Below are positions 33,277-58,973 of a stretch of DNA of 64,000 nucleotides, piece by piece. The stretch is taken from contig CAVYIB010000017.1 in NCBI GenBank assembly GCA_963768435.1, positions 8,923 through 72,922 of the forward strand. Reading direction: 5' to 3'. Origin of the DNA: an uncultured Actinomycetota bacterium. Lineage in GTDB: Bacteria; Actinomycetota; Thermoleophilia; Gaiellales; Gaiellaceae. A program made the position numbers and the translations under genes. The notes under the pieces were generated by a model. That model made no database searches. It was not told the DNA's origin and saw only the letters and a program-made list of their open reading frames with translations. The first letter of the stretch is position 1. Each line of letters begins with the position of its first letter.

Positions 33277-34006
33277 CTAGCGAAACAGATCGCGGTCTGC
33301 CGGCATGACGAGATCGGTGGCGAGGCCGTCGCCTTCGAGCGCGTAGCCACGGACGATCACGACCGGGAGGCCGTCTGCCTTGCTCGCACGAACGAGATTC
33401 GCGGCGGCGGCGAGCTCGTCCGCGACGGCGATCTGCGAGGAACGGAGCGGAAAGCCCGCCCGATCGTGGGTTCCGCGGAGGTCACGAAGCGGCGCGAGCC
33501 CGGCGACGCCGATCGCGATGTCGGTCGTGCCCCGGCGGAAGGGGCGGCCGAAGGAGTCCGTGACGATGACGGCGACGTTCACGCCGGTGTGCTCGTGGAG
33601 CGTCGTGCGGATCCTCCGGGCGCTCGCATCCGAGTCAACTGGCAGCAGGATCACCGTGCCGGGCTCGGCCGCGTTCGAATGGTCAACCCCGGCCGAGGCG
33701 CAGACGAACCCCTGGTGGGTCTCGGCGATCACGAGGCCGCCGCGCGATCGCACCACGCGGGCCGTCTCGCGCAGGATGACCTCGAGCTGCGGGAGATTCG
33801 TCTCCGGGCCGGCGAGCTCCCGCGCGAGATCCGACGGCTCGATGCCGGCGAGCGCGACGACCCGACCCTCGGCCTTCGAGACGGCCTTCTGGGCGACCAC
33901 GACGACATCGCCGTCGTGCAGCCGGGCCGCTCCCGCGATCAGGGCACCGAGGTCCGTCACCCTCCGCGATCTCGGGCAGCCCCTCGACCGGGAAGATCTC
34001 GATCAC
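33277..34006 (-). CDS. cofE: Coenzyme F420:L-glutamate ligase, stand-alone CofE type, frameshift near 33955
   Basis: From GTG 34006 the reading is VIEIFPVEGLPEIAEGD. It continues in ORF 33277..33960 (DLGALIAGAARLHDGDVVVVAQKAVSKAEGR...SAGVD...VIVTDSFGRPFR). The start overlaps the npdG stop as GTGA. Confidence 0.85.
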
Positions 34007-34635
34007 TCGCCGGGCATGCCTGTGACGGTGATCCCGGCGTGAGCGCGGTACCGGCGGTTCAGGTTCACGATCACGGCAGTCAGCCCCTCGAGCGTGCGTG
34101 CGCTCGCGAGCGGCCCGACATCGAGCACGCGGCCGGCGACGACCCTCCCGGCCAACGCGAGCGCAAGTTCCTTCGCGGCCGGATCGTCACCGCAGATGAG
34201 CGCGTCCTCCAGAGGAGGGGCGTCGTCGAGGTTCGCCGCCGCGATCGAATGGAGGCCGGCGACGACCGGCCCGGCGACGAGATCCTGGATCCGCTCGGCG
34301 AGCGACCGGGCATCCGGATCCGGGCGCACGCCGTCCTTCGAGAAGGCGAGCACGCTCGCGACCGAGAGAAGCGGCGTCGTCCCGAGCACCTCGGCAACCT
34401 CCGACGCCGTGTCCAGTGCGCCGTCGGACTTCACCGCGAGCACGGCGAGATCGACGTTCCGCACCGCGTTCTGGTTCGTCGCTCCCTCGACGCTCGGGCC
34501 CAGCTCCGCAGCTGCGTCCCTGGCCCGGGATTCGTCCCGCGAGCCGATCACGATCTCGTCCTCGCCTGCGGCGACCAGGCGAGCCGCGAGCGCGCGGCCG
34601 AAGCTGCCGGTGCCGCCCAGAATCGCGATCTTCAT
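34003..34635 (-). CDS. npdG: NADPH-dependent F420 reductase
   Basis: ORF 34003..34635 begins MKIAILGGTGSFGRALAARL and has the family-typical length and C-terminus. Confidence 0.8.
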   Translation of the reverse strand: MKIAILGGTGSFGRALAARLVAAGEDEIVIGSRDESRARDAAAELGPSVEGATNQNAVRNVDLAVLAVKSDGALDTASEVAEVLGTTPLLSVASVLAFSKDGVRPDPDARSLAERIQDLVAGPVVAGLHSIAAANLDDAPPLEDALICGDDPAAKELALALAGRVVAGRVLDVGPLASARTLEGLTAVIVNLNRRYRAHAGITVTGMPGE

Positions 34636-34724
34636 CGGGCCACCTTCAGTCGCCCGAAGAGTCTCTGCTCCAGCACCGGCAAAGCCGGTGCCTCCGCTTC
34701 GAGCTCCGGCGAGCCTACGCTCAT
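34632..34724 (-). CDS. MSVG mini-ORF A (30 codons) / conserved leader cassette between cofD and npdG
   Basis: The peptide is [30 protein letters not shown]. Its ATG overlaps the cofD stop (ATGA) and its TGA overlaps the npdG ATG (ATGA). It is homologous at nucleotide level to 44207..44287 and 57655..57759. It contains the hairpin GCACCGGC-TTT-GCCGGTGC. Confidence 0.4.
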   Translation of the reverse strand: MSVGSPELEAEAPALPVLEQRLFGRLKVAR

Positions 34725-35647
34725 GCGGCCGCAGCGGCAGCGTCGAGCACGGCCTGTGCGAGCCGCCGGCGAGCGTCGTCGTCGACCATCAAGGTCCGGG
34801 CGACGACCGGGCGGATGTCGGCCGGGAGCTCGGCCCCGCTGTCTGCCTCGTCGATCACGAGCGCGTCGATCAGGCCCGGATAGCAGGCGGCCACAGCGGC
34901 CGGCCCCGTGCCGCCTGCGAGCCGCGCGAGCATCCTGTCGGCGGGGCCCTTGACCGCCCGTCCACCGATCAGCGGGCTGACCGCGACGCAGGGGACCGTG
35001 CGCCGCTCGAGCGCGGAGCGAATCTCCGAGACCGCCAGGATCGGCCAGATCGACACGTACGGGTTGCTCGGTGCGATCGCGATCAGGTCGGCAGTCTCGA
35101 TCGCCTCGAGCACTCCCGGAGCGGGTCGAGCCTCCGCCGCTCCCGTGAAGTGCAGGGCGTCGACCTCGTCGCGGTGGCCACGGGCAACGAACCACTCCTG
35201 GAACGAAAACGTCCCTGCAGGTGTCTCCACGAAGGTACGAAGCGGGTCGTCGGTTGCCGGGAGCAGCGTGCTCTCGATCCCGAAACCTGCGGCGAGCCGC
35301 TTCGTGACAGCCGACAGCGCGACCCCTTGATGCATGAGCTCACTCCTGAGCAGGTGCAGGCCGAGATCGCGATCTCCGAGCTGAAACCACGTCTCGCCGC
35401 CGAGCGCGGCGACCGTCGAGAGCGCGTTCCACGACTCCTCCGCGCGCCCCCAGCCGCGCTCCTCGTCGGCCACCCCACCAAGTGCGTACAGCACGCTGTC
35501 GAGGTCCGGCGACACGTGAAGGCCCAGCACCTCGATGTCGTCCCCCACGTTGCCTATGATGGCTACGTTGTCTGATTCGACTACAGCTACGACGCCACGC
35601 AGGAACCGCGCGCCGCCGACGCCGCCCGAGAGCACGGTCACGTTCAC
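34721..35647 (-). CDS. cofD: 2-phospho-L-lactate (or EPPG) transferase CofD/FbiA
   Basis: ORF 34721..35647 is intact. It carries [30 protein letters not shown] and [11 protein letters not shown]. Confidence 0.9.
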
Positions 35648-35675
35648 GGGAGTTTCTGCTCCGGCGAGCCCGGGG

Positions 35676-36272
35676 TCATGCAGCGGCTCCGGCGCGTAGC
35701 GCGGTGAGGACGCTTCGCGTACGGGGGCCGACCCTGTCGGCGAGCCGCTCGAGGTCGGAGATCGTGTCTACGTCATCTACGAGATTCGGGGCCTCCACCC
35801 GCCGGGAAGGCCCGAGCGCGGCAAAGCGCGAGGCGCTGCCGGGGCCGAACACCGGAGCGAACAACACCGTCGAGGCAAGCCCGAGTGCGTTCGTCGTTCC
35901 GTCGGCCGCCGGTGCGAGGGCGAGCCCGTCGTCGGGGACCGCGCCCGCCAGGGCAAGCAGGTCACGGGCCGTGACACACGGGAGGTCGGCGTTGACGACG
36001 AGGAACGGGCCGACGCCACCGGACGCCATCGCTGCGGCCTCGAGCCCTGCGCGCACCGCCGCACCCTGCCCGCCACCGGGATCCGGCACGAACGTCGCGT
36101 CCCCGGCGACGGTCTCGGGCGGACCGACGACGAAGGTCGGACCGACGGTGGTGCAGGCGGCGAGCACGTCGGCGAGCATCGCAGACGTGAGCGCCGTCCG
36201 CGTGTCGCGGGGGAGCAGACCGAGCCGGCTCTTGCCTTTCGCCCCGCGGAAGGGAACGACTAGCGACGGCAT
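35676..36272 (-). CDS. cofC: Guanylyltransferase CofC/FbiD of F420 biosynthesis
   Basis: This is the tail of ORF 35676..36455, starting at ATG 36272. It begins MPSLVVPFRGAKGKSRLG and carries ADLPCVTARDL. Confidence 0.8.
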   Translation of the reverse strand: MPSLVVPFRGAKGKSRLGLLPRDTRTALTSAMLADVLAACTTVGPTFVVGPPETVAGDATFVPDPGGGQGAAVRAGLEAAAMASGGVGPFLVVNADLPCVTARDLLALAGAVPDDGLALAPAADGTTNALGLASTVLFAPVFGPGSASRFAALGPSRRVEAPNLVDDVDTISDLERLADRVGPRTRSVLTALRAGAAA

Positions 36273-43202: not shown

Positions 43203-43970
43203 TCAGCCGCTTGCGTGTGCCGGCGTGAAGAGCTTGCAGGCACGGAGAGCGGCCGTCGTGGCGTCCTTCGTGCAGATCACGCCCTCGTACTTCGTGCCGA
43301 GCGCCGACGGCGGCTTTCCATTCGACGTGAGGAGCTCGGAGGTCTCGGTGAACAGGTAGAGGTCGCCGATGCTGCCCTGGCAGTCGAAGACCTGCTTGGT
43401 GACCGATACCGTCTCCACGACGCCGCCGCCGAGGGAGACCGTTCCGAGCTCGAGCGGCTCCGAGGGCTGGACGATCGCCGGGAACGGATAGGTGCCGGAG
43501 ACGACGCTGCACCCGGCGAGCGGCGTGGTCGTCGTTCCGAGCGGAACCGTCACGGTCTGGCATGAGACGCCGCCGGTGACGAGGCCGTCGGTGCAGATGT
43601 GCCCCTCGACGCTTCGGGCCACCGCGACCGAGCCTGGAGTATGGCCGCTCTGAGCCGTGTCGACGAGCTCGATAAAGGTCTGCACCTGCTTCAGCTCGGC
43701 GAGCGTCGACTTCGAGTCGTAGCAATTGAAGGTCTCGAGATCGACGACGATCGTCTTGCCCGTCTTCCCAAGCCAGACGGAGTTGAGCCTGGTCGGCGCG
43801 GACGGCTGCGGGGATACCGCCTGGCATCCCTGCGGAATAGGACTCGGGCTCGGACTCGGGCTCGGACTTCCGGCCCCCTCCGCAGCACCGGTCATGAACA
43901 GGAACAGGAGCGCCGCACACGCGAGCATGGGCCACCAAAGGCCACGACTCCCACCATCGCAACGGTTCAT
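43203..43970 (-). CDS. Secreted Cys-rich hypothetical protein with an (SP)n linker
   Basis: ORF 43203..44087, with ATG at 43970. It has a signal/TM region (LWWPMLACAALLFLFMTGAAEG), a GSPSPSPSPSPIP linker and 10 Cys in the mature part. Its stop lies 3 nt upstream of the GH-A start. Confidence 0.55.
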   Translation of the reverse strand: MNRCDGGSRGLWWPMLACAALLFLFMTGAAEGAGSPSPSPSPSPIPQGCQAVSPQPSAPTRLNSVWLGKTGKTIVVDLETFNCYDSKSTLAELKQVQTFIELVDTAQSGHTPGSVAVARSVEGHICTDGLVTGGVSCQTVTVPLGTTTTPLAGCSVVSGTYPFPAIVQPSEPLELGTVSLGGGVVETVSVTKQVFDCQGSIGDLYLFTETSELLTSNGKPPSALGTKYEGVICTKDATTAALRACKLFTPAHASG

Positions 43971-44206
43971 CTCACCCTCCCCCGAACTGAGGTCAACGTT
44001 CCGTGCTGCTTGTTTCGACCCCGCGACTATACAACTCTCGTGGACAAAATCAAGGCCCGAAAGCTCGCGTCTTCGCACCTGGCGCAAGGGCTCCCGTCGA
44101 CCGTTCGACAGAGCCCTGAAAAGGGGCCCGGGGCTGGCGATCCGGCCGCTCCAGCCAGTACCGTCCTCACAACGTGCTAACGGCGTTTGACTACCCTCAG
44201 GGCCCG

Positions 44207-44287
44207 ATGAGCGTAGGCTGGACGGAGGTGTCGGGTTTGCCGGTGCCGGAGCAGAAAATCATAGGGCGACCGAAGGCTGCCCCGTGA
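44207..44287 (+). CDS. MSVG mini-ORF B (26 codons) / conserved leader cassette upstream of the WecA-like gene
   Basis: The peptide is MSVGWTEVSGLPVPEQKIIGRPKAAP. Its TGA overlaps the GTG start of the WecA-like gene (GTGA). It is homologous to 34632..34724. Confidence 0.4.
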   Translation: MSVGWTEVSGLPVPEQKIIGRPKAAP

Positions 44288-46091
44288 GCACTGCCGTCGC
44301 GACCATCGCGCTGCCGGCCTCGGCGGCCGTGATCTGGGCCCTGCTTCGCTCCCCCCTGGCCAGGCGGATCGTCAACGTGCCGACCGGCGACCGCTGGTCT
44401 GCAGCGCCGACGCCGAGCCTCGGCGGGATCGGCATCTTCGCGGGCTTCACGATCGGGCTCTGGGCGGCCGTCGCGGTCGGCGCGTTCCACCCGGCAAGGA
44501 GTTCGTCGGCGTCTTTGCCGCGATCACGCTCGTCTTCGCGGCCGGGCTCGCGGATGACCTCTACGGCATGCCTCCACTCGGGAAGCTCGCCACGCAGCTC
44601 GTCGCCGCGGCGATCGTGATCGCCACCGGAACGCACGTCCAGCTGATCCACAACCAGGTGGTCGGCGATGCGATCGCGGTGATCTGGCTGATCGGGCTGA
44701 CGAACGCCTTCAACCTGCTCGACAACATGGACGGGCTCGCCGCGACGCTCGCCGCGATCGCGTTCGGGTTCTTCGCGATCGACGCTCTGACCATTCATGC
44801 AAGCGACGCGACGCTCGCGTACGCGCTCGCCGGCGGGCTCGCGTGCGTCGGGTTTCTCCCGTTCAACCTCCGGAAGGGGCCCGCGCTCGTCTTCATGGGC
44901 GACTCCGGAAGCCAGATGGTCGGGTTCGCGCTGGCTGCGCTCGGCCTGACCGCGAGCTGGCGCGTCGCCGGAACGACCGTCGCGACGCTCGTGCTGCCGA
45001 TCCTGATCCTCGCCGTGCCGATCCTCGACACCACTCTCGTCACCGTCGCGCGGCTCCTCGACGGGCGGCCGATCCACGAGGGCGGGCGGGACCACACCTC
45101 TCACCGGCTTGTCCGCTACGGCCTCTCCGAGCGGCACGCCGTCGCGCTGCTCGCGCTGATCTCGCTCTGCATCGGCGGCTCGAGCCTCGCCTACACCGTG
45201 CTCGACAACTTCCGGCTGACGGTGATCGGCGTCCTCGCGACCTTCGTCCTGCTCGTCCAGTTCGCGAGCTTCCTGGCCGACGTCGACCGCCGGCCGGCGC
45301 AGCTCGGGGAGCCGCTCGGGCTCGCCCAGGCCTTCGGCGTCCACTGGCGCCGCCTGGTCGAGGTGATCGTCGACTTCTTCGTGATCACCGCCTCGTTCAC
45401 GGCTGCCTACGTGATCGACTTCGGCTGGCCGGGAACCGACAGCCAGCGGTTCATCCGCGACCTCGCGCTGCCGATCGTGCTGACCACCTGCTATCTGACG
45501 TTCATCCCGTTCGGCCTCTACCGGTCGGTGTGGCGCTTCGCCGGGATCCGCGACGCGATCAGCGCCGCCCTGGCCGTCGTCGTCGCCAACGCCGCCGCAC
45601 TCACGTTCATGGTGCTGACCCAGGACATGCGCGACTTCGACGACTCGTTCTTCATCATCAACACCCTGATCTGCATGGTCGCGATCATCGGCTCGCGCTT
45701 CGCCGAGCGGACGCTCCTGATCGGGACGCAGTCGGTGCGCGACCGCACGGCCCGGCGCACGCTGATCGTCGGCGCCGGCCGGACCGGCCGCAGCCTGATG
45801 CGCGAGCTCCGCGAGACGGGCGGCGAGAAGGTCGTCGGCTTCGTCGACGACAACCCGCACCTTCGCCGCCGGAGCCTCCAGGGCGTGAAGATCGTCGGAG
45901 CGACCTCCGAGCTGGCACGCGTGCTCGAGCGCACCGAGCCCGACATCGTGCTGATCACGATCCCCGATGCGCCGCGTGAGGTCCTCGACGCGCTCGTCGA
46001 GACCTGCACCGAGGCCGGCGTCACGTGCCGCTTCGTCCGGCGCGAGATCGACCTCGACCCGCGCGTCGTGTTCGGCGCTGCATCAGAATGA
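44284..46091 (+). CDS. WecA/MraY-family polyprenyl-phosphate N-acetylhexosamine-1-phosphate transferase fused to a C-terminal multi-TM plus Rossmann-like (CapD/WbaP N-terminal-like) module; frameshift near 44491-44494
   Basis: From GTG 44284 the reading is VSTAVATIALPASAAVIWALL...GAFHP. It continues as GKEFVGVFAAITLVFAAGLADDLYGMPPLGKLATQ into ORF 44568..46091 (NAFNLLDNMDGLA, FMGDSGSQ). More TM helices follow, then TLIVGAGRTGRSLMRELRETGGEKVVGFVDDNP. Confidence 0.8.
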
Positions 46092-46098
46092 CCCACCC

Positions 46099-48207
46099 AT
46101 GACCTCGGTCTCCGTCAGCACCACCGGCCGCGAGCGGCAGCGGTCGCTCGTCGACCGCGTGCTCGCCGCCTTCCCGGCGCTCGTCATCGCGCTCGTGATC
46201 TTCGTCTTCTACGCCGTCGAGGCCTGGTCGCGGAAGACACCGTGGATCTTCACCGACGAGCTCGAATGGACGCAGATCTCACGCTCGATCGCCTCGACGG
46301 GGCATGCCGCCCGGCGCGGCGACCCGATCTACTTCAAGTCGCTCTACGCGTACCTGATCGCCCCGGCCTGGTGGATCCACTCGACGAGCGCTGCCTACTC
46401 GGCGATCAAGTACCTGAACGCCTTCGTCATGCCGCTCGCGGCGATCCCCACCTACCTGCTGGCGCGGATGCTCGTGACCAAGCGCGCCGCCGTCGCCGTC
46501 GCGGTCGGCTCGGTCGCGGTGCCGGCAATGGCCTACGTCACCTCGATCGTCACCGACGTCCTCGCCTACCCCTACTTCGCGCTCTGCTCCTGGCTCTCGG
46601 TGCGAGCGCTCAAGGAGGGCCGGCGCCGGGACGTGATCATCGCCGCCGTCTTCCTGCTCGGCGGCTACTTCATCCGGCAGAAGCAGTTCACGACGCTTCC
46701 GTTGGCCTTCGCGTTCGCTGCCACCGGCCTCTGGTTCACCGGGCCGCGCGGCCGCGGCTTGCGCCGCAACTGGTCGAGAGGCGACAAGCTCGGCGCCCTC
46801 GCGCTCGCGATCGGCGTCGCGATGCTGTTCAACCGCTACGCCCTCCAGCACATCCAGGAATGGCAGGTCCCGACGCAGCACTACAAGAACCGCTTGGTCG
46901 ACTACGGGCTCCGCGCCGGACTCTCGCTGACGATCGGACTCGGGGTCCTCCCGGTGATCGGCGGCCTGGTGTCGCTCAGGCTTCCCGAGCGCCGGGGCGA
47001 TCCCACCTACCGCGCCTACGCCGCGTGGACCGCCTCGGCGATCGGCGTCCTCGCGCTCTACACCGCCGACAAGGCGACCTCGCTCTCCCTGGACTTCGCG
47101 ACGCTCTGGGAGGAGCGCGACCTGATCTACCTGTGCCCGCTCCTACTGCTCGGCACCGCGATGGTGTTCCAGGCAAAACGGCTCGACTGGCGGATCGTCG
47201 CCGGAGCCACAGCCTTCGTGCTGGTGATGGTCGGGCTGAAGGCGATCCAGCTCCAGTTCCCGTACTACGAGGCTCCCGGGTCCTCGATCCCGGCGGCCCT
47301 CGCCAACTACCGCCACTGGACGTCGCACTCGGTGCGCGTCGGGCTGTTCGGCCTCCTCGCGCTCTCGCTCGGGCTGATCGCCCTGCGACGCAGACGCTGG
47401 GCGGGGCCGCTGACCGCCGCGCTGCTCCTCTGCTGGATGCTGGCGGGCGAGATCTCGATGACCGTCGGGCTCGACAACGGCGCCAACCAGTACCGCCACA
47501 ACCTTCCTGCTCAGCTGAACTGGGTCGACGCGCAGGTGCGCGGGAAGCCGGTGACCTACGTCGGCCAGGCGATCCTCGACCCGTTCGGCGAGCAGCTGAC
47601 CGAGTTCTGGAATCGCTCGATCAAGAACGTCACGAGTCTCGACGGGACGGCGCCCGGCCCCGGCCCGACCTCCACGCCGAATCTCGTCAACCCCGAGGGC
47701 CTCCTGTCGGACGACTCGGGAGATCCGTACGTCCTCGCCGACACGGGCGTCGTCCTTGCCGCTCCGATCACGAAGCGGCAGGGAGCCATGACCCTCTATT
47801 ACACCGGCGGGAAGCCGTGGCATCTGCTCGACGCCGTCCAGCAGCTGTACTCGGACAGCTGGTGCCCCGACTGGTGCGCCTACACCTACTTCAAGCCGCA
47901 CCAGAAAGGAACGCTTCTGATCTCGATCGGCCGCAAGGGCTACAACGGCAGCTACCCCGCCGGCCAGGCGACGATCGTCGTCGGCACGGTCCGGATCGAC
48001 AAGCACTCCGCTCCCCGGCTCGACCACGTCTACGTCGACATGCACCACGTCGTGAAGAACGGAACCTCGAGCGTGATCGCGATCCCGGTGGCGCATACCC
48101 CGGTTCGCGTCGAGGTCTCGATCCCGAACACGATCCCGCCGGCGGTCTCCGGGGATCCGCGTCACCTCGGCGCTCAGGTCGGCTTCAAGTTCAAGCCGTC
48201 CACGTGA
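46099..48207 (+). CDS. GT-C-like polytopic membrane glycosyltransferase candidate (paralog 1) with a C-terminal beta-rich soluble domain
   Basis: This is the tail of ORF 45967..48207, starting at ATG 46099 (702 aa). It has an Asp-Glu first-loop motif (PWIFTDELEWTQISRS) and more than 10 predicted TM helices. It is a paralog of 55549..57658. Confidence 0.65.
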   Translation: MTSVSVSTTGRERQRSLVDRVLAAFPALVIALVIFVFYAVEAWSRKTPWIFTDELEWTQISRSIASTGHAARRGDPIYFKSLYAYLIAPAWWIHSTSAAYSAIKYLNAFVMPLAAIPTYLLARMLVTKRAAVAVAVGSVAVPAMAYVTSIVTDVLAYPYFALCSWLSVRALKEGRRRDVIIAAVFLLGGYFIRQKQFTTLPLAFAFAATGLWFTGPRGRGLRRNWSRGDKLGALALAIGVAMLFNRYALQHIQEWQVPTQHYKNRLVDYGLRAGLSLTIGLGVLPVIGGLVSLRLPERRGDPTYRAYAAWTASAIGVLALYTADKATSLSLDFATLWEERDLIYLCPLLLLGTAMVFQAKRLDWRIVAGATAFVLVMVGLKAIQLQFPYYEAPGSSIPAALANYRHWTSHSVRVGLFGLLALSLGLIALRRRRWAGPLTAALLLCWMLAGEISMTVGLDNGANQYRHNLPAQLNWVDAQVRGKPVTYVGQAILDPFGEQLTEFWNRSIKNVTSLDGTAPGPGPTSTPNLVNPEGLLSDDSGDPYVLADTGVVLAAPITKRQGAMTLYYTGGKPWHLLDAVQQLYSDSWCPDWCAYTYFKPHQKGTLLISIGRKGYNGSYPAGQATIVVGTVRIDKHSAPRLDHVYVDMHHVVKNGTSSVIAIPVAHTPVRVEVSIPNTIPPAVSGDPRHLGAQVGFKFKPST

Positions 48208-51208: not shown

Positions 51209-51833
51209 TCAGACGCTCGCGCTGCAGAAGACGCGGCCGGTGTACCGCGAGAGGAACATCCCGACCGGCCCGGTCCGCCCGGCTGCCTCGAGCGCGTTCG
51301 CCGCGAGGCCCGGGACGGCGCGGCGCTGCGGCACGAAGTAGGGGCGCATCTCGATCCGCGTGAAGCCCGCCGCACGGAGGTCGCGCTCGACCGTGACCGC
51401 CGGGTGGGCGGGCTGGCGGAAGTCGAAGACGAACTTCCGGGTCACGTACCCGGCGACACCCCGGAAGAAGCCGACCCGGTCTTCCGGCTGGTAGAAGGCC
51501 CGGAGGCAGATCGCCGCCTCGACAGGCGCCGCGGGGCGGTAGTCCTCGAAGCGCGCCTCGACGAACGCGCATTCCGGATGAAGCCGCTGTGCGACCTCGA
51601 TCATCCGGCTGCTCGAGTCGACCCCGATGTAGGTGAGGCCGTGCGCCACGCAGCGGGTCGGCCATGATCGCGTCGCCGCAACCGAGGTCGACCACGGTCG
51701 CGCCCGCCTCGAGCCGCGGCCCGAGCTCGACGATCACCCGGGCCCGGCCCGCCGAGTACCGGACCGGGTCCGCGTACTCACGCTCCGAGAACCCGTCGGC
51801 GAGCGCGTCGTACTTCTCCTCTGATGTGGTCAT
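51209..51833 (-). CDS. Class I SAM-dependent methyltransferase, frameshift near 51650
   Basis: From ATG 51833 the reading is MTTSEEKYDALADGFSEREYADPVRYSAG...VVDLGCGDAIMADPL. It continues in ORF 51209..51649 (VAHGLTYIGVDSSSRMIEVAQ...). Confidence 0.7.
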
Positions 51834-52570: not shown

Positions 52571-53566
52571 GCCAGCACCCGCCGGTAGACCTCGGCGGTG
52601 CGGCGCGCGGTCTCGGTCCACGAGAAGGCCTTCGCGCGCTCGATCCCGGCGGCCGAAAGCCGCTCCCGATCGCCGAGAGCCTCGACGGCGGCCGCGGCGA
52701 AATCGCCTGCCGCCGCGTAGACGGCCGCATCTCCGCCGACCTCGCGGAGCGCGGGCTCGTCGGCCGCGACGACCGGCGTGCCGCAGGCCATCGCCTCGAC
52801 CACGGGCAGCCCGAACCCCTCGAACCGCGAGGGCAGGACGAGCAGCGCGGCGCCCCGGTAGAGGTCGGCCAGGGCCTCCTTGGGCAGATAGCCGCGCAGG
52901 TCGGCCCCGGCCGTGCGGAGCTTCTCGGCGAGCCGCGCGTCCTTCTCGGGGCCGACCACGACGAGCGGCAGGTCGACCGCCTTCGCGGCCGCGAGCGCCG
53001 ACAGCGGATCCTTGCGCTCCTGGATCGCGCCGACGAAGAGGACGTACCCGTCGTGCGCGCCTCCGGGCGTGAACGCGGGGTCGACGCCGTTCGGCGTGAC
53101 GGTCACCTTGCCTTCCGGCGACGCCGTAGCGCGCGAGGATGTCCCGTTTCGTTCGCTCCGACACGGTCAGCACGTGATCGGCCCGCCGAACAGCCCGCGG
53201 GACGAGCGCGCGAAACACGGTCCGGTCGGCGAAGCCCATCGTCGTGTCGGAGCCGTCGAACGAGAGGTCGTGCACGGTGACGACCGAGCGGCCGTGCCAG
53301 CCGAGCGGCAGGAAGTACTGGAGGTGCACGAGCTGCGGCTTCAGCCGGCGGAGGAGCCGCGGTAGCGAGTAGGCCATCCGCGCCTCGGAGAGCCGCGCGG
53401 GCAGCTCGATCGGCTCGATGCCGTCGGGAACCAGCTCGGGATGGCGCGTGACCGCGGCGAGCTCGAGATCGGCTGCGACGCCGGGCAGCTCCCGAAGCAG
53501 GTTCTGGACGTAGGTCTCGTCCCCCGTGCGCTGCCGGCCGAGGACGTCCGCGTCGATCAGGATCAC
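52567..53566 (-). CDS. Family 4 glycosyltransferase (GT4 no. 1), frameshift near 53119
   Basis: From GTG 53566 the reading is VILIDADVLGRQRTGDETYVQNLLREL...ILARYGV. It continues in ORF 52567..53106 and its upstream extension (PEGKVTVTPNGVD...PSRFEGFGLPVVEAMACGTPVV). Confidence 0.8.
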
Positions 53567-54483
53567 GAAACCTCCGCGTAGACCTCGGTGGTCAGGCGGG
53601 CGACCTCGGCCCAGGTGGCGCCCCGCCGCGGCGCGGCGGCAGCGGCGCGCGCGATTCCGTCGCGGATCGAGGCCGTGTCGGTGGGGTCGACGTAGACCGC
53701 GTCGTCGCCCGCCAGCTCGGCCATCGGGCTTCCTTCGGTCGTGACGACGGGGCAGCCGCAGGCGAGCGCCTCGGCAACCGGGATGCCGAAGCCCTCGTAG
53801 AGCGAGGCGTAGACGAGGCACCGGGCCCCGCGGTAGAGCGCCGCCAGCTCGTCGTCGCCGACCTCGCCGAGCCACGTGACGTTCGCCGGCGGCTCGACGT
53901 TCCCCCAGCCGCGGGCGCCGACCACGCGCAGCTCGCCGTCGACCGCGGCGGCGATCCGGGCGAGGTTCTTGCGCGGCTCGAGCGTCCCGACGGCGAGCAC
54001 GTAGTCGCCCTCCGCCCGGGGCCCTTCGGGCGTGAACACGTCCTCGACGGCATTCGGCACGACTCTGATCTTGGCCGCCGGGACGGCGAGCAGGTCGCGT
54101 AGCTCCCCGGCGGTGAACTCCGAGACGGCGATCACCCGCGAGGCGGCGCGCACGACGCGAGGAACGGCGCGGCTCGAGTAGGTCCGCGTCCACCGGTTGA
54201 ACCACTCGGGGTGACGCAGCACGGCGAGGTCGTGCACCGTCACGACGAGCGGGACGCGCGAGGAGAACGGCCCGCGGAAGGTCGGGCAATGCAGGACGTC
54301 GGCGTCGGGGACGCGCAGGCGCGGGTACCAGAGCGCGTCGGCCGCGACGGCCCGCACGCGCGAGGTGGCGGGGAAGGACGTCTGGATCACCGGCACGTCG
54401 AGGTGCTCGAGCAGCCCGCGCAGGTACCGCGCCGTCCCGGCGCGGGTCTGGAGGAGCGGCGTCGTGTCGATGCCTACGAGAAT
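53563..54483 (-). CDS. Family 4 glycosyltransferase (GT4 no. 2), start codon unclear
   Basis: This is the tail of ORF 53563..55194. It reads ILVGIDTTPLLQTRAGTARYL...ASLYEGFGIPVAEALACGCPVV. The homologous N-terminus begins at ATT 54483. The nearest in-frame GTG is at 54525. Confidence 0.75.
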   Translation of the reverse strand: MLVGIDTTPLLQTRAGTARYLRGLLEHLDVPVIQTSFPATSRVRAVAADALWYPRLRVPDADVLHCPTFRGPFSSRVPLVVTVHDLAVLRHPEWFNRWTRTYSSRAVPRVVRAASRVIAVSEFTAGELRDLLAVPAAKIRVVPNAVEDVFTPEGPRAEGDYVLAVGTLEPRKNLARIAAAVDGELRVVGARGWGNVEPPANVTWLGEVGDDELAALYRGARCLVYASLYEGFGIPVAEALACGCPVVTTEGSPMAELAGDDAVYVDPTDTASIRDGIARAAAAAPRRGATWAEVARLTTEVYAEVS

Positions 54484-55552
54484 CGCTTGTACCCCTCGAG
54501 GAAGAGCTCGCCGGTGCGCTGCCACGAGAACTCTGCGGCGTGCGCGAGCCCGAGCACGCGCAGCTCCTCGCGGCGGCCGAGAGCCTCGCGGATCGCGGCG
54601 GCCATCGCTTCCGGGCTCTCGGGGTCGCAGCGGACAGCGGCATCGCCGGAGGCCTCGTTCAGCGACGGGTGCGAGGAGGCGACGACGGGTGCGCCGCACG
54701 CCATCGCCTCGGTGATCGGCATCCCGAAGCCCTCGAACCGCGACGGATAGACGACCGCAGCGGCTCCCCGGTAGAGCGCGGCAAGCTCCTCGTCCGACAC
54801 CCGCCCGAGGCGCACGACTCCCGGCCGGTCGAGCTCGGGCTGCTCGCCCCAGCCCGGCGCCGCCGACGACGGCGAGCTCGAGCCCGGGCTCGGCGAGGGC
54901 CCCGAACGCCTCGACGAGGGTGCCGAGGTTCTTGCGCGGCTCGAGCGTCGCGACGGTGAGCAGGTAGGGAGCCTCGCGCCCAGCCGTGGGCCCGTCTGCG
55001 TGGTACTCGGCGGCGATCCCGGGCTGCGCCACGACGATCCGTTCGCGCGGGAAGCCGAGGGTCGCCGCGACGTCGTCGGCGGTGAACGCCGAGTTGGCGA
55101 AGATGACGTTGCACGTCGCCGCGGTGTGCGCGTACTTGCGCGTGTGCATCGAGTGCGTCCGCCCGGTCACCCACTCCGGATAGTGGAGCGGCACGAGGTC
55201 GTGGATCGTCGTCGCGCGCAGGCCGCGCCTTCTGGGGCGGGTACATCCAGTCGGTGAAGTGGAGCACGTCGAAGTCGCCGAGCCAGCGCTCAGCCGGCGG
55301 CCAGCCCGCCCGCGACCACGCCGTGCGCCAGGCGTGGGCGCCGATGAACGTCTTCAGCCGCAGCTCGAGCGGGATCCCGTCGAGCACCTCGGCGATCGTC
55401 CGGCGCCCGGCAGGCGAGGTCGGGGCGAAGGCCACGATCCGGTCGCCGGCCTTCTCTGCCGCCTCCGCCAGCCCGCGCAGCGAGCCGAGGATGTAGTTGT
55501 TCACGCCCGTCCGCTCGTGCGAGAGCGGCGAGACGTCGAAGGCGATCCTCAC
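54474..55552 (-). CDS. Family 4 glycosyltransferase (GT4 no. 3), two frameshifts (about 55228 and 54852)
   Basis: From GTG 55552 the reading is VRIAFDVSPLSHERTGVNNYILG...HFTDWMYPPQK. It continues as RGLRATTIHDLVPLHYPEW...AVVGGAG, then WGEQPELDRPGVVRLGRVSDEELAALYRG...PSRFEGFGMPITEAMACGAPVV. Confidence 0.75.
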
Positions 55553-57658
55553 GGGTTGTAGGTGAAGTTCAGGAAGTGGGCGCCGAGGGGCCGGGTGTCG
55601 ATCGAGCCGGGCTCGACCTTGGCCGGGATGAGCGTGCGCCCGACGGTGAAGCGAACCAGGCAGCGCCCGTTCGACCCGGGCCGGAGCGGCACCGTCAGCG
55701 TCGTCGGCGTGTTCACGGGAATCGTCTTGCGGCCGACGACGGCGCCGTTCTCGGTCGCGACGACCGTTTGCGGCCGCGTGAAGAGGCGCGAGTCGCCCTG
55801 GAGCTGAACGTCGACCGAGCCGCCCGTGCACTCGACCCGCTGGTAGGTGACGTGCCGGCCCGACCACGTCTCGTTCGGGTAGAGGCCCACCACGCTCGGG
55901 AGGATCACGATCGGCCCGTTCACGCGATAGAGCGCGACGCCGGCCGGATCGGACGCGATCTGCTTGCCGGCCAGCTCGACGTTTCCGGATGCGAGGACGT
56001 ACTGCGCGTGGACCGGCTTGCCGTCCGCCGACGCGAGCTCGCCGTTCGGCTGCCGCGCGACGTCGGTCTCGGGCAGCGGGTCCGGCCGCGCGGCGCCGTC
56101 GACGTCGTAGACCGTGCGGACGCTGCGGTTGAAGAACTCGTTCTCGTAGACCGGGTAGGGCGAGGGCATCGACCCCGTCCAGAGCACCGAGACTGCCGCG
56201 TGCTGCCCGACGAGCCGGTCGATCCAGTCCGGGTGGAGCATGTGCGTGCCCGACCAGAGCGAGTTGACGGTCGTCTTGTGGATCCCATGCCGGCCGTTCT
56301 CGACCACGTAGGCCGTGCCGACGAAGTACAGGGCGACGAGCGCCGGGAGCACGAGCGCATAACGGCGCGGCAGGAAGACGAACAGCGCGCCCGCGGCGAG
56401 GGCGACGGCGAGCGCGGCCCAGCGCACCTGCGGGAGGTGGATCAGGTTGTCCTGCGCCCACCACCACGGCAGGAGCGCGAAGGTGTCGGAGAGGGCGCTC
56501 GCGTTGATGAAGCGCGTGTACGGGATGAAGAACGGCAGGATCCCCGCGACGACGGCAGCCGCGACGAGCACGCGGCGGCGGCGCGTGATCACGCCGTCGA
56601 CGGACAGGCCGACGAGGGCGATCAGGGCGAGAGGGGCGAGGTAGAAGGTGTTCCGCTCCTCGATCCGGTTGACATAGCTCGCCGAGGCGAACGCCGCGAC
56701 CTCGGCGATCAGCCAGACGCTCAGCGCGAGCGAGGCGGCAGCAAACGCTCGAGCGCCCGGCGTCGGCCGGCGCGGCGCAAGCCAGAGCGCGAGGAGCGCG
56801 GCGAACGGGACGATGCCGAGGTACAGGTCGAGATCGGAGACGTGGTAGAGGAAGAAGTGGAGGATCCCGCTCACCGTGTAGGAGCTCGACGTCGCCGCGC
56901 GGTAGGCGCCGAGCAGGCTGAGCGGTGACCGGCCCGCGGCGGTCGTCGCCGCCAGGGCGAGCAGCGCCCCGCCCCCGAGGAGCCCGTACAGCCATCCGTA
57001 CCGCCGCACCGTCGCCCGGGCGCCGCGCCGCTCGATCAGCGCCAGCAGCACCGGCGCCGTCGCGACGGCGGCGAAGAGCGCCACCGCCTGCGCGCGCGTC
57101 TCGAACGCCACGCCGCAGACGACGAGCAGCAGCGATCTGGCGGAATGCCGTCGGCGCCTCCAGCGTCAACACGAGCAGGAACGCGGCGAGGACGAACAGC
57201 GGGTAGAACGCGTTCTCGGTCATCAGCATCCCCGTGTAGAGCATCGAGGGGATGAGCACCGCGAGCCCGGCGCAGATCAGCGAGAGCGTCGCCGGCAGCA
57301 GCCGCCGCGCCAGGAAGTACGCGGGGATCGCGGCGAGCGACATCAGGACGGCGTTGAAGGCCTTCGCGGCCGTATAGGCGTCGGGGACGCCCGAGAAGAG
57401 CCGCCACGCCGGCGAGATCAGGACCGGGTAGACGAACCCGTAGCCGTGCGAGGGAACGCCCCGGACGAGGAACTGACCGTGCGCCGCGACGTTCTTCGCG
57501 AGCTCGGAGTAGACGATCTCGTCGACCATGATCCACGGGGCGACCATCCGGTGGCCGAGCGCCACGCGGACGACGATCGAGCAGACGACGATCCCCGTGA
57601 GCCACAAGCCCGCCGGGATCGCGACGGCCCGCGCACGGGCGCCCGTAATAGCGCTCAT
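55549..57658 (-). CDS. GT-C-like polytopic membrane glycosyltransferase candidate (paralog 2), frameshift near 57130-57134
   Basis: From ATG 57658 the reading is MSAITGARARAVAIPAGLWLTGIVVCSIVVRVALGHRMVAPWIMVDEIVYSELAKN...EAPTAFRQIA. It continues in ORF 55549..57111 and its upstream extension (LLLVVCGVAFETRAQAV...). It has the same architecture as 46099..48207. Confidence 0.65.
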
Positions 57659-57759
57659 TCCCGCTCCCGGCACCGGCGAAGCCGGCACCTCCGCTCAATT
57701 TTGAGCTCCGTCGAGCCTACGCTCCGCCTTTTTATGAGCTCCGTCGAGCCTACGCTCAT
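57655..57759 (-). CDS. MSVG mini-ORF C (34 codons) / duplicated leader cassette upstream of GT-C paralog 2
   Basis: The peptide is MSVGSTELIKRRSVGSTELKIERRCRLRRCRERE. Its ATG overlaps the GT4 no. 4 stop (ATGA) and its TGA overlaps the GT-C ATG (ATGA). It contains a 33-nt in-frame tandem duplication. Confidence 0.35.
   Translation of the reverse strand: MSVGSTELIKRRSVGSTELKIERRCRLRRCRERE
57702..57757. repeat. Perfect 23-nt direct repeat TGAGCTCCGTCGAGCCTACGCTC x2 (57702-57724 and 57735-57757), period 33 nt
   Basis: Read directly from the sequence. A/T-rich spacers flank the copies (AATTT and TTTTTA on the + strand). Confidence 0.9.
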
Positions 57760-58973
57760 ACCAGCCCCGCCTCCCGGGCGATCCGGACGATCTCCTTCGG
57801 ATCGTCGAGCCCGATGTCGGCGGCCGCCTCGGCGATCCGGATCAGGATCGCGTCGGTTGCCGCGTCGCCGCCGGCGGCCTCCTCGAGCGCGGCGACGTAG
57901 GCGTCGGCGACCTGCCCGAGGTCGTGATCGCGGCGGACATACGCGCGCGCTGCCGCGCCCAGCTCGGCGCCGCGGTCGGTAGCGAGCTCGAGCGCAGCGG
58001 CGATGGTGGCCACCTCGTAGTCGTCGACGGGGATGCGCAGAGCGGCGCCGTCGGGGATCTCGGAGAACCAGCCGATGTCGGACACGAGCATCGGCTTGCC
58101 GAGGGAGAGCGCGCGAATCACCGAGCCGGACGTCTCACCCATCGTCGGCGAGCGCAGGTTGACGAGGACGTCGCAGGCCGCCATCAGCGATTCGAACCGC
58201 TCCTCGCTCACGTATCCCTCGCGGATCAGGGAGTCGCCGCCGATCCCGAGCCGTTCGAGCCGGCGGTCGAGGTCGAAGCGCTCGGTCGCCTCGCCGACGA
58301 GCAGCAGCTTTGCTCCGGGCCGCCGCTGGCGCAGCAGCGTGAAGGCCTCGAGCAGCTCCGGGATCCGCTTGTTCATGTTCATGTGGCCGAAGCAGCCGAC
58401 GAGCGGGTCGCCCTGGAGCCCCTCGGCCGGCACGACCGTCTCTCCGCCGGGCCACGCCGCATGCGGGATCCGCCACAACGGGCCGTCGTATCGCGCCTCG
58501 CGGACGCCGCGCTCGACGTAGTGCGAGTGGACGATCAGGCCGCGCGCCAGGTCGAGCACCGTGCCGGTGAGCGGGAAGCGCTCGGGCTGGGTCTCCCAGA
58601 TCAGCGGCAGCAGGTTGTCCAGCACGCCGAGCGCGAGCAGCCGGCCGGCGACGCCGTAGTCGCGCTCCATGGCCTCCATGTAGGCGCGGCCGTTGCCGCG
58701 GCCGATCGTGATTCCCGCGACCAGGTGGTGCAGCACGAGCTCGTGGAGGACGACCACGCCGGGGCGCTCGCGCAGCGCGTCGACGATCCAGCCGTGCGCG
58801 TCGGGGTCGTTCCCGATCTGGTAGAGGCAGACGTCGGCGGACGGGGCGCGCTTCCCGGGCCGGGCGATCACCACCTCGTCGATCCGCTCCTGGAGAGCCG
58901 GCAGGAGCAGCTTCGAGTAGTCCGCGATCCCCGAGCGCGACGGCGGCATCGGCGAGTAGTAGGCGACCTTCAC
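57756..58973 (-). CDS. Family 4 glycosyltransferase (GT4 no. 4)
   Basis: ORF 57756..58973 is intact at 405 aa. It carries MKVAYYSPMPPSRSGIADYS and the C-terminal GT-B half NLRSPTMGETSGSVIRALSLGKPMLV. Confidence 0.8.
   Translation of the reverse strand: MKVAYYSPMPPSRSGIADYSKLLLPALQERIDEVVIARPGKRAPSADVCLYQIGNDPDAHGWIVDALRERPGVVVLHELVLHHLVAGITIGRGNGRAYMEAMERDYGVAGRLLALGVLDNLLPLIWETQPERFPLTGTVLDLARGLIVHSHYVERGVREARYDGPLWRIPHAAWPGGETVVPAEGLQGDPLVGCFGHMNMNKRIPELLEAFTLLRQRRPGAKLLLVGEATERFDLDRRLERLGIGGDSLIREGYVSEERFESLMAACDVLVNLRSPTMGETSGSVIRALSLGKPMLVSDIGWFSEIPDGAALRIPVDDYEVATIAAALELATDRGAELGAAARAYVRRDHDLGQVADAYVAALEEAAGGDAATDAILIRIAEAAADIGLDDPKEIVRIAREAGLV

Follow-up and report, generated by a model that had tools for sequence, protein, structure and literature searches.

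Three short intergenic segments in the 64,000-nucleotide stretch of DNA analysed here (the window) resemble one another when read in the sense of the gene that follows, and each carries a mini-ORF that runs into the start of a different gene. The question is whether they are leader cassettes owned by npdG, a WecA-like gene and a GT-C-like gene, as the initial annotation proposed, or copies of a more widely dispersed element. The segments read back as that annotation had described them, homologous and with mini-ORFs of 30, 26 and 34 codons in copies A, B and C, and the ATGA, GTGA and ATGA start-stop overlaps are all real by the coordinates of the cofD, npdG, WecA-like, GT1 and GT-C-like genes. 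To these we add a fourth copy, D, and the features are as follows.

34632..34724, minus strand: copy A, long form, between cofD (34721-35647) and npdG (34003-34635)
34699..34724, minus strand: stem-loop S1 of A, ATGAGC / GCTCGA around loop GTAGGCTCGCCGGA (covariance model, S1 covariation)
34672..34692, minus strand: hairpin H2 of A, GGCACCGGC-TTT-GCCGGTGCT (fold)
34633..34659, minus strand: hairpin H3 of A, CTT-C-GGGCGAC-TGAAG-GTGGCCC-G-ATG; the last codon is the npdG start (34635-34633)
35644..35679, minus strand: copy D, vestigial, ATGACCCCGGGCTCGCCGGAGCAGAAACTCCCGTGA, between cofC and cofD; 11-codon bridge ORF
44207..44287, plus strand: copy B, long form with an internal deletion; 26-codon mini-ORF MSVGWTEV...
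44206-44261, plus strand: covariance-model match of copy B (24.7 bits, E=0.0016)
44207..44226, plus strand: S1 5' arm ATGAGC of B and conserved loop GTAGGCTGGACGGA (consensus comparison)
44227..44247, plus strand: hairpin H2 of B, GGTGTCGG / CCGGTGCC, with three G-U wobbles (fold and family covariation)
44260..44286, plus strand: hairpin H3 (module 2) of B, CAT-A-GGGCGAC-CGAAG-GCTGCCC-C-GTG (fold)
57655..57759, minus strand: copy C, in which a complete short-form unit comes after an S1-only unit; 34-codon mini-ORF
57734..57759, minus strand: first S1 of C, a perfect ATGAGC/GCTCAT stem around GTAGGCTCGACGGA (covariance-model alignment)
57669..57689, minus strand: hairpin H2 of C, GGTGCCGGC-TTC-GCCGGTGCC (fold, covariance model)

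The 30-codon mini-ORF of copy A is joined by ATGA at both ends, to the cofD stop and to the npdG start, and its S1 stem takes in the cofD stop together with the mini-ORF start. Copy C lies between the GT1 gene (57756-58973) and a 999-aa GT-C-like gene (54659-57658) and is ATGA-linked to the stop of the former and the start of the latter; 3' of its H2 stand a Shine-Dalgarno-like GGGAGCGGG (57668-57660) and then the ATGA at 57658-57655. Copy D overlaps the cofC stop by ATGA and the cofD start by GTGA, and is orthologous to a full long-form copy in another genome (L022:398). Compared with the family consensus, copy B is without the S1 3' arm and the linker, which to judge from its sequence were apparently deleted between two CGGAG repeats; its H3 displays a GAAGG Shine-Dalgarno-like box in the loop and pairs the GTG start of the WecA-like gene (44284-44286) at the stem foot, and the copy ends as the GTGA of that start. 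Copy B sits in a divergent intergenic region (the GC3 plot shows no coding on the plus strand from 43800 to 44270), so that in this place it serves the WecA-like gene as an upstream ORF.

A covariance model derived from other genomes matched copy A at 63 bits (E=2e-11) and the complete unit of copy C at 57655-57727 (79 bits, E=8e-15), and it scored the S1-only unit at 57734-57759 separately (28.6 bits), which bears out the earlier remark that the first box is doubled in C. Copy D is too degraded and fell below detection, and the rest of the 64 kb held no further match under E=0.1. Box 1 (GAGCGTAGGCTSGMCGGAG) alone has four matches in the window against 0.35 expected, a number that none of 100 shuffles reached. 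Compared with shuffled sequence, A and C fold more stably (z=-3.3 and z=-2.0), while B folds no better than its shuffles (z=+0.1).

Outside the window, a box-1 scan of species-representative genomes gave at least 119 loci, and the matches listed all come from Gaiellaceae, Gaiellales, Thermoleophilia or unclassified Actinomycetota MAGs; a scan with hairpin H2 gave at least 120 soil-metagenome contigs. Since the element precedes more than 100 unrelated genes, is variably present at orthologous junctions and occurs in tandem arrays, it does not consist of gene-specific leaders. On its sequence distribution, one dispersed repeat, and not a set of leaders for three genes, accounts for A, B, C and the remnant D. 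About five matches beyond the seed copies in 715 kb of the loci L001-L100 suggest a copy number of tens per genome.

The repeat unit of about 68 nt runs, in order, through S1 (a freely covarying stem around the invariant 14-nt loop GTAGGCTCGACGGA), the GC-rich hairpin H2, a GGAG Shine-Dalgarno-like box and an optional third hairpin, H3, which pairs with the downstream start codon and among the window copies is present in A and B. Its architecture is modular, comprising S1-only units, a short form, a long form with H3 and composite arrays; H3 as an element of its own was considered and discarded, as every H3 found belonged to a copy that also bears S1. Between the ends of the repeat, ATGAGCGTAGG... 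and ...GGAGCGGGAATGA, there is no inverted repetition. The repeat is previously undescribed. The initial annotation had recognised no known RNA or leader-peptide family, in agreement with the Rfam scans, which returned no match at the gathering score in the window and none at E≤1 in five element-rich loci; the box-1 sequence occurs in no paper that we found, and the literature search returned nothing relevant on Gaiella repeats or on MIRU-like elements in Actinobacteria. Likewise, blastn of the consensus against 72,556 plasmids gave no match, and an exact-protein lookup for npdG returned no record.

We then asked what is conserved in this repeat. Across 136 units, 94% of cells are paired and 11 of the 15 pairs show compensatory changes (227 cells), a level of pairing reached by none of 500 shuffles and compared with 27-53% in slid controls. 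All six S1 pairs covary in a sample not selected on S1. In a sample not selected on H2, that hairpin has 24 G-U against 2 A-C combinations, so that its folding is sense-strand specific; the hairpin with G-U wobbles that had been said to pair only in the sense transcript is real. H3 is an 11-bp stem with CAU paired to the start codon; covariation is seen at its N-N position. The modules are nucleic-acid structures rather than peptide-coding units, and the hairpins probably act in RNA.

Equally regular is the placement of the copies with respect to genes. Among the matches listed, the downstream gene lies on the same strand in 103 cases and on the opposite strand in 2, and the upstream gene in 94 and 2, respectively, counts that overstate independent events because the copies are related by descent; window copies A-D were counted as fitting this gene-sense placement between genes. 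The annotation had named copies scattered in both orientations and inside coding regions, as for a REP/MITE-like element, as an outcome that would speak against it: genome-wide copies do exist, but they are scattered neither over both orientations nor inside genes. Again among the matches listed, 78 of 107 copies are preceded by a long GC3-rich ORF whose stop is precisely the TGA of the element, and in 81 of 103 arrays ATGA/GTGA links lead without a break from the upstream TGA through the mini-ORF or mini-ORFs to the downstream start, counting ATG, GTG or TTG starts only; 80 of these 81 closed chains end in the GC3-predicted coding frame. The length differences between window copies had been noted to keep the reading frame, and this extends to the family: all 15 length architectures among the matches listed (29, 65, 68, 71, 74, 89, 92, 95, 101, 134, 137, 152, 161, 68+68 and 68+137) are 2 mod 3 per link, that is, 3n-1, and tail variants compensate to hold the length (CCGGGAGCGGGAATGA vs CCGGAGCGGGAAATGA). 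In the metagenome replication, 40 of the matches listed were closed, 5 were not closed and 12 were fusions. The roughly 20% of arrays that are not strictly closed comprise 7 that are broken (three or four of them TAGTG or TAAGTG abutments, as read from the sequences), 8 that run into the downstream ORF and 7 that need CTG or ACG starts; some of them may reflect indel errors in long-read MAGs.

These regularities suggest how the repeat might be accommodated by its hosts. Placed in sense orientation at the 4-nt ATGA/GTGA overlap between two co-transcribed genes, the element would supply the TGA on which the upstream gene ends and with which the element's ATG or GTG overlaps, then a stop-free mini-ORF whose start-to-start distance of 3n-1 makes its TGA overlap the next start, and a GGAG-type Shine-Dalgarno-like box 5 nt 5' of that start. 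A ribosome finishing the upstream gene would re-initiate on the mini-ORF, melt the hairpins, terminate on the downstream start codon and re-initiate there. With such a termination-reinitiation relay, the insertion would not uncouple the operon, and the frame is apparently kept open so that ribosomes can pass to the next gene; translation of the mini-ORF and re-initiation are, however, predicted from sequence. S1 would bury the first stop/start overlap in its stem around the invariant loop, H3 in A and B would bury the downstream start while exposing GAAGG in its loop, and the S1 loop (GUAGGCUCGACGGA) is probably where a mobilising enzyme or a host protein binds.

Comparison of orthologous junctions points to mobility. 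Junctions that are without the element are single plain ATGA/GTGA overlaps, while filled sites have RTGA at both ends, and one empty site lies within the window.

51830..51833, minus strand: empty site with nothing but an ATGA stop/start overlap; L031 has a 71-nt element at the orthologous junction

Presence and absence are reciprocal between the genomes L018 and L050, and the cofD-npdG junction, which holds one unit in the window, is filled also by one short unit in L016 and by three units in L022. Direct tandem arrays range from 1 to 4 units, with 2-4 units in L010, L013, L019, L032 and L126, and copies within a MAG are more alike than copies between MAGs (permutation p=0.003). The copies have probably spread by transposition, as far as their sequences indicate. 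In a search for a RAYT partner, E. coli RayT served as the tblastn and phmmer query over 239 loci (1.5 Mb) and the window, and the best E was 4.6, with a single distant query and partial genomes; since no transposase was found in the 1.5 Mb of loci, the spread may instead have proceeded by recombination or gene conversion.

The S1 3' arm (GCTCAY) is complementary to the RTGA junction, and the R that flanks the element varies together with the Y inside it (A-T 21, G-C 19, A-C 8, G-T 2; Fisher p=1e-5). We also considered a full RTGA target-site duplication and rejected it: the R on the left and the R on the right correlate only weakly (odds ratio 2.9, p=0.08), and RTGAGC is present at the left end even where no gene abuts, so that part of RTGAGC belongs to the element itself. 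One could imagine that the element homes to junctions by base pairing, the S1 3' arm (GCTCAY, or such sequences as GGCTCA and GCCGCC in other subfamilies) serving as an internal guide to RTGA and the next bases while the loop docks a dedicated enzyme, a proposal that we put forward as speculative and rather improbable. Were it true, the element would be mobile, programmable and junction-seeking and would leave the translation of the operon intact, related in its logic to guide-directed IS200/IS605 integration and distinct from it in mechanism.

Overall, we consider it probable, if far from certain, that the family is a mobile repeat, specific to the Gaiellales lineage (class Thermoleophilia), that sits between cistrons and works in a MIRU-like manner. 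An alternative, which we judge unlikely yet worth weighing in full, is REP-like selfish DNA without an RNA-level role: the hairpins would be single-stranded DNA substrates of a Y1 transposase (RAYT or IS200/IS605-type), and the open mini-ORF would mark the survivors after coupling-breaking insertions were purged. In favour are GC-rich hairpins that covary and a GTAG motif, here inside a loop, like that of REPs, and both the complementarity of GCTCAY to RTGA and the R-Y covariation would suit such an element, the pairing of S1 arm and junction recalling the guide-target pairing of IS200/IS605. In a co-oriented gene, moreover, the lagging strand is templated by the sense strand. However, the share of copies oriented with their genes, about 98%, is higher than one would expect from replication-strand bias alone, the matches listed include no inverted pairs, unlike REPINs and BIMEs, and a Shine-Dalgarno-like box and an H3 that pairs with the start belong to translation and not to transposition; the 1.5 Mb of element-rich loci also held no RAYT-like ORF, at the low sensitivity of that search.

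The repeat could also have been domesticated, mobility having only seeded the sites, so that the S1 loop is now the recognition site of a host factor acting in trans, be it an RNA-binding protein, an RNase or a small RNA, which controls coupling, processing or stability of dozens of operons as a single regulon. We find this doubtful. It would account for a loop, GTAGGCTCGACGGA, that is nearly invariant amid a varying stem, linker and H2 (an invariance that could stem in part from recent spread rather than constraint, although the flanking stems have freely diverged), for the burial of start codons by S1 and H3, the layout expected of a switch, and for the persistence of the element at orthologous junctions of diverged genomes (gcvH-gcvP in five MAGs, cofD-npdG in three). 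Yet the flanking genes among the matches listed share no functional theme, vestigial or internally deleted copies such as B and D are tolerated, and close relatives have a plain ATGA at the same sites, so that the element is dispensable there; nor has a candidate factor been identified.

Far less plausible are the gene-specific leader peptides or structured 5' leaders of the initial annotation, that is, attenuators or riboregulators of F420 and cell-envelope glycosylation genes. Every window copy does stand directly upstream of a gene, B is truly in a 5' leader and H3 occludes a start codon, but the distribution over unrelated downstream genes and the variable occupancy of orthologous sites contradict this reading, the peptide is not conserved, and a terminator-like site was looked for near B and none was found.

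As to the peptide-level evidence that had been read from the window copies, selection falls on frame closure. Variability is flat across codon positions (0.68, 0.64 and 0.68 bits), with neither 3-periodicity nor a third-position excess; the C-terminal tails switch between ...RERE and ...RSGK via compensating indels; and in the ATGAGCC subfamily the loop is read in a different frame, as MSRRLDGG... in place of MSVGSTEL..., with the 68-nt period kept. We therefore rejected peptide-level selection, and a functional micropeptide family (MSVGSTEL...) encoded between genes is barely credible: its ORFs stay open and the N-terminus is recurrent, but the recurrence follows from the invariance of the loop nucleotides, and some copies are internally frameshifted and still closed.

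If the MIRU-like reading is correct, the strategy of hiding mobile DNA in operon junctions by keeping translational coupling would not be a mycobacterial oddity, having arisen in Gaiellales or having persisted there; these bacteria are known almost entirely through metagenomes, in this analysis mainly those of soil. Beyond what MIRUs offer, there are hundreds of diverged copies, clear covariation, an invariant loop that points to a binding partner and hairpins in which both start codons are buried, and together these lead to testable predictions on termination-reinitiation. The repeat would further explain odd mini-ORFs and uncertain gene starts in these MAGs, and its tandem arrays could serve as strain markers.

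The closest known systems are the mycobacterial MIRUs, given in the summaries of Supply et al. 1997 in PMC12548453 and PMC3184786 as 40-100 bp dispersed repeats within operons. They are inserted at start codons with a -4 coupled ORF and show tetranucleotide direct repeats at filled sites (PMC12548453, PMC3184786), have units of 77 and 53 bp and have the M. tuberculosis complex and M. leprae as their only reported hosts (PMC4213456). Both families consist of short repeats between operon genes with a sense ORF that overlaps the neighbours' stop and start (-4 spacing), both form direct tandem arrays of variable unit number and filled or empty sites with a repeated tetranucleotide, and by our arithmetic 77 and 53 are both 3n-1, as is the 68-bp unit of the Gaiellales repeat. 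The comparison covers published descriptions of MIRUs. The host belongs to a different class of Actinomycetota, however, and the Gaiellales repeat has two or three well-defined, strongly covarying stem-loops, an invariant 14-nt loop, stems that bury start codons and a modular architecture. We do not class it as a member of the mycobacterial MIRU family.

With REPs and BIMEs, whose hosts with RAYT transposases are Enterobacteria and Pseudomonas, the repeat shares high-copy GC-rich hairpins in transcribed intergenic or intercistronic regions, the GTAG motif and possible mRNA-stabilising or processing roles. In contrast, REPs lie outside genes in either orientation, many of them in inverted pairs, and have neither an ORF nor stop/start overlaps, whereas the Gaiellales matches listed are only direct, gene-sense copies with GTAG in a loop and not at the 5' foot of a hairpin. 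Like MITEs (Correia/NEMIS, for instance) and ERIC/IRU elements, it is small, non-autonomous, co-transcribed and variably present at orthologous sites; unlike them, it has no terminal inverted repeats, keeps a strict orientation, targets stop/start overlaps rather than TA and is under selection for frame closure. Finally, engineered bicistronic-design couplers, as cited in PMC12548453 (its ref. 78), use a short leader ORF that ends on the start of the target gene. They resemble the repeat in the overlap of a short ORF's stop with the downstream start, in a Shine-Dalgarno box inside coding sequence, and in delivering ribosomes and melting secondary structure, a role that the repeat would fill as a natural translational coupler for high-GC hosts; it differs from them in being natural, repeated, mobile and also coupled upstream.

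The element is a structured, sense-oriented repeat of about 68 nt at stop/start junctions, where closure of the reading frame is enforced, and it is gained and lost between relatives. The window holds three copies and a remnant, listed below with one empty site; S1, H2 and H3 are the stem-loop modules of the element, box 1 is its first conserved box, and codons refer to the short frame (mini-ORF) within it.

34724..34632, minus strand: copy A, long form with short linker, 30 codons
44207..44287, plus strand: copy B, long form minus the S1 3' arm and linker, 26 codons
57759..57655, minus strand: copy C, S1-only unit plus short form, box 1 twice, 34 codons
35679..35644, minus strand: copy D, remnant between cofC and cofD, an 11-codon bridge ORF with one ATGA and one GTGA overlap
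51833-51830: empty site, plain stop/start overlap

The sequences of A, B and C were each found where the initial annotation had placed them, and the start-stop overlaps claimed for them are as it described. According to Pfam, A lies between CofD upstream and an F420-dependent NADP oxidoreductase (npdG-like) downstream, B precedes a WecA-like family-4 glycosyltransferase, and C lies between an upstream GT1 and a downstream 999-aa protein that matches PMT_2 (GT-C) weakly. Since box 1 has four matches in the window against 0.35 expected, and a covariance model for which other genomes alone were used picks up C, A, C's extra S1 unit and B, the similarity of the copies is not due to chance; the same scan of the window returned nothing beyond the A, B and C units below E=0.1. 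D resembles a copy of A that has undergone a deletion between two GGAGC repeats.

Further features of the window were observed. The WecA-like gene (44284-46091, plus strand) switches reading frame near 44450-44480: the GC3 signal and open frame follow frame 1 between the GTG at 44284 and ~44450, and frame 3 thereafter (ORF 44568-46091, with a Pfam Glycos_transf_4 match from profile position 25 and C-terminal CoA_binding_3 and NAD-binding domains), which points to a 1-nt indel, from assembly error or in a pseudogene. Long minus-strand ORFs at 52720-54791 contain three copies of a 159-nt segment (spacing ~940-975 nt, 66-73% identity), suggesting three tandem paralogous genes or domains beside the GT-C-like genes, and a 111-nt inverted repeat (13531-13641/18017-18127, 76% complementarity, arms 4.4 kb apart) is probably due to paralogous genes in opposite orientation.

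Scanning one genome per species with box 1 yielded at least 119 loci, and among the matches listed every metagenome-assembled genome (MAG) was labelled Gaiellaceae, Gaiellales, Thermoleophilia or unclassified Actinomycetota. A second scan, with H2 alone as query and hence blind to box 1, yielded at least 120 soil-metagenome contigs. The window's flanking proteins share 83-87% identity with their counterparts at one collected locus, L022, so the window comes from a Gaiellaceae-like genome. The genes downstream of the element are, among the matches listed, of all kinds. Rfam gave no match for the window at gathering score or for five element-rich loci even at E<=1, nor was the sequence found in the literature searched; the element is real and, as far as these searches go, undescribed.

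The short form has the consensus (A/G)TGAGC-GTAGGCTCGACGGA-GCTCA(T/C)-CAAGGAGCGG-AGG(C/T)GCCGGC-TTT-GCCGGCGCC-GGGAGCGGGA-ATGA. S1 is a stem around an invariant 14-nt loop, GTAGGCTCGACGGA. In a sample not selected on S1, the stem takes the forms GAGC/GCTC, GAGCC/GGCTC, GCGGC/GCCGC, CCGGC/GCCGG, GAGGC/GCCTC, GAGTC/GACTC, GTGT/ACAC, CCGAC/GTCGG and GTGATC/GATCAC, with the loop unchanged across all of them, and compensatory changes are found at 6/6 S1 pairs. H2 is a 9-bp GC hairpin, five pairs of which covary. Over 136 units, pairing is present in 94% of cells and double changes occur in 11 of 15 pairs (227 cells); none of 500 shuffles equalled this support, and slid controls gave 27-53%. In H2, in a sample not selected on it, 24 G-U pairs stand against 2 A-C, so the fold belongs to the sense strand, which upholds the sense-strand hairpin with G-U wobbles proposed initially. 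H3, an extra 3' module carried by A and B and seen solely attached to S1-bearing elements, has the form CAT-N-GGGCAAC-CGAAG-GTTGCCC-N-ATG-A, an 11-bp stem in which CAU pairs with the downstream start codon and GAAGG is left in the loop. There are 15 true copies of H3, with covariation at the N-N position; in one of them the stem is wholly different (CGGCCGTC/GACGGCCG).

Within the S1 loop, for instance at 57720-57707 (minus strand), GCUC-GACG-GAGC, with GUAG just 5', could form a 4-bp mini-hairpin competing with the two innermost S1 pairs, a possible alternative conformation whose pairing the common C-to-T loop variant GTAGGCTTGACGGA would retain as U-G. S1-only mini-units with a 29-nt period and 10-codon mini-ORFs (3n-1) occur at L098:3396-3480 and in L118 and L061; H2 is therefore not needed for S1 to exist or to multiply. 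Composite arrays with the order S1-S1-H2-H2 (L017, L099, L104, L124, L147, L154, L196, L223), whose second S1 usually has the CCGGC/GCCGG stem, look as though one element sat inside the linker of a second, a layout that may be informative on target choice.

In 127 arrays among the matches listed, the downstream gene is on the same strand as the element in 103 cases and on the opposite strand in two (upstream gene: 94 and two), and a long ORF stopping exactly at the element's TGA precedes 78 of 107 copies. A strictly closed chain, in which the upstream TGA is overlapped by ATG or GTG, followed by one or more stop-free mini-ORFs and a TGA overlapping the downstream start, was found in 81/103 arrays among the matches listed, 80 of the 81 ending in the GC3-predicted coding frame. 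In all 15 length architectures each link is 3n-1: tandem arrays of period 68 are ATGA-linked mini-ORF chains, those of period 66, 69 or 72 have fused ORFs and are still closed, and compensating indels occur (CCGGGAGCGGGAATGA versus CCGGAGCGGGAAATGA). Of the seven "broken" arrays, three or four are abutments of the TAGTG or TAAGTG type and likewise competent for coupling, and the metagenome loci replicate closure (40 closed versus 5 not). In the GCGGC/GCCGC-stem subfamily (L130, L152, L190, L209 and other metagenome loci), S1 begins just past the TGA, which is excluded, and several copies have no obvious downstream start codon; not every subfamily may be a junction coupler. Two further tiny bridge ORFs, each joined through overlaps to the long ORFs on either side (ATGACCCACCCATGA, 4 codons, 46088-46102, plus strand; GTGACCGTGAGGGCGAGATCGTGA, 7 codons, 37880-37857, minus strand), have no similarity to the element and could be chance occurrences, a matter of alternative start choice, or remnants that have decayed fully.

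Variability per codon position is flat (0.68, 0.64 and 0.68 bits in columns outside those selected on), peptide tails end in either ...RRRERE or ...RRRSGK, some copies have internal frameshifts with 23 codons retained, and in the ATGAGCC subfamily the reading of the invariant loop is shifted by one base (MSRRLDGGDQ... versus MSVGSTEL...) with the 68-nt period retained. By these data it is not the peptide that is conserved: the loop is under constraint as nucleic acid, and the ORF need only remain open and in register. The peptide- and RNA-level evidence that had seemed to conflict is thereby reconciled: RNA constraint and frame-keeping lengths stand, and the conserved peptide falls.

Element-free orthologous junctions are plain ATGA or GTGA overlaps (for example in L018, L041, L081, L050 and, at 51833-51830, the window), and L018 and L050 are reciprocal, each having a copy where the other is empty. 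At cofD-npdG, the window has one long unit, L016 one short unit and L022 three; at cofC-cofD, L022 has the full long form and the window remnant D alone. Copies are more alike within than between MAGs (p=0.003), and a CCCCGG hairpin variant is private to one MAG, at three loci. Covariation links the R of the flanking RTGA to the Y of the internal GCTCAY (Fisher p=1e-5), reflecting either selection that acts on the outermost S1 pair or a target chosen through pairing; RTGAGC occurs even where no gene abuts the element. No RAYT-like (REP-associated transposase) gene was found in 1.5 Mb of collected loci, a weak test with one distant query (E. coli RayT).

From the sequence, we infer a relay in which ribosomes finishing the upstream gene would open S1, re-initiate at the overlapped ATG, read through H2 (and H3 where present), end on the start codon of the next gene and initiate anew at that point, aided by GGAG five nucleotides upstream in the short form or, in the long form, by the GAAGG of the H3 loop. 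As S1 and H3 hide the start codons, translation of the downstream gene should hinge on this relay. Insertion would thereby be nearly neutral for the operon, so that the element could accumulate in core operons. B sits between divergent genes, so translation of its mini-ORF must begin de novo; B has lost the S1 3' arm, which would otherwise bury its ATG.

Among known systems, the element lacks the terminal inverted repeats that define MITEs, and the occurrence in both orientations and in inverted pairs that defines REP/BIME elements was not seen among the copies collected. The initial reading of the copies as leader cassettes holds for homology, overlaps and sense hairpin and not for a leader-peptide attenuator, whose defining features the element lacks. 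The closest system, compared by published description and unit length, is the mycobacterial interspersed repetitive unit (MIRU). MIRUs insert at start codons with their own ORF coupled at -4 spacing (PMC12548453), have filled and empty sites with tetranucleotide direct repeats (PMC3184786), and have unit lengths of 77 and 53 bp (PMC4213456), both 3n-1 like the 68 nt of the element, which shares every functional feature of the MIRU kind. However, its host belongs to a different class, and its stem-loops with their invariant loop go beyond MIRU descriptions; on these grounds, and as MIRUs were compared by description, we do not place it in the MIRU family. The element is ordinary in kind yet unusually informative.
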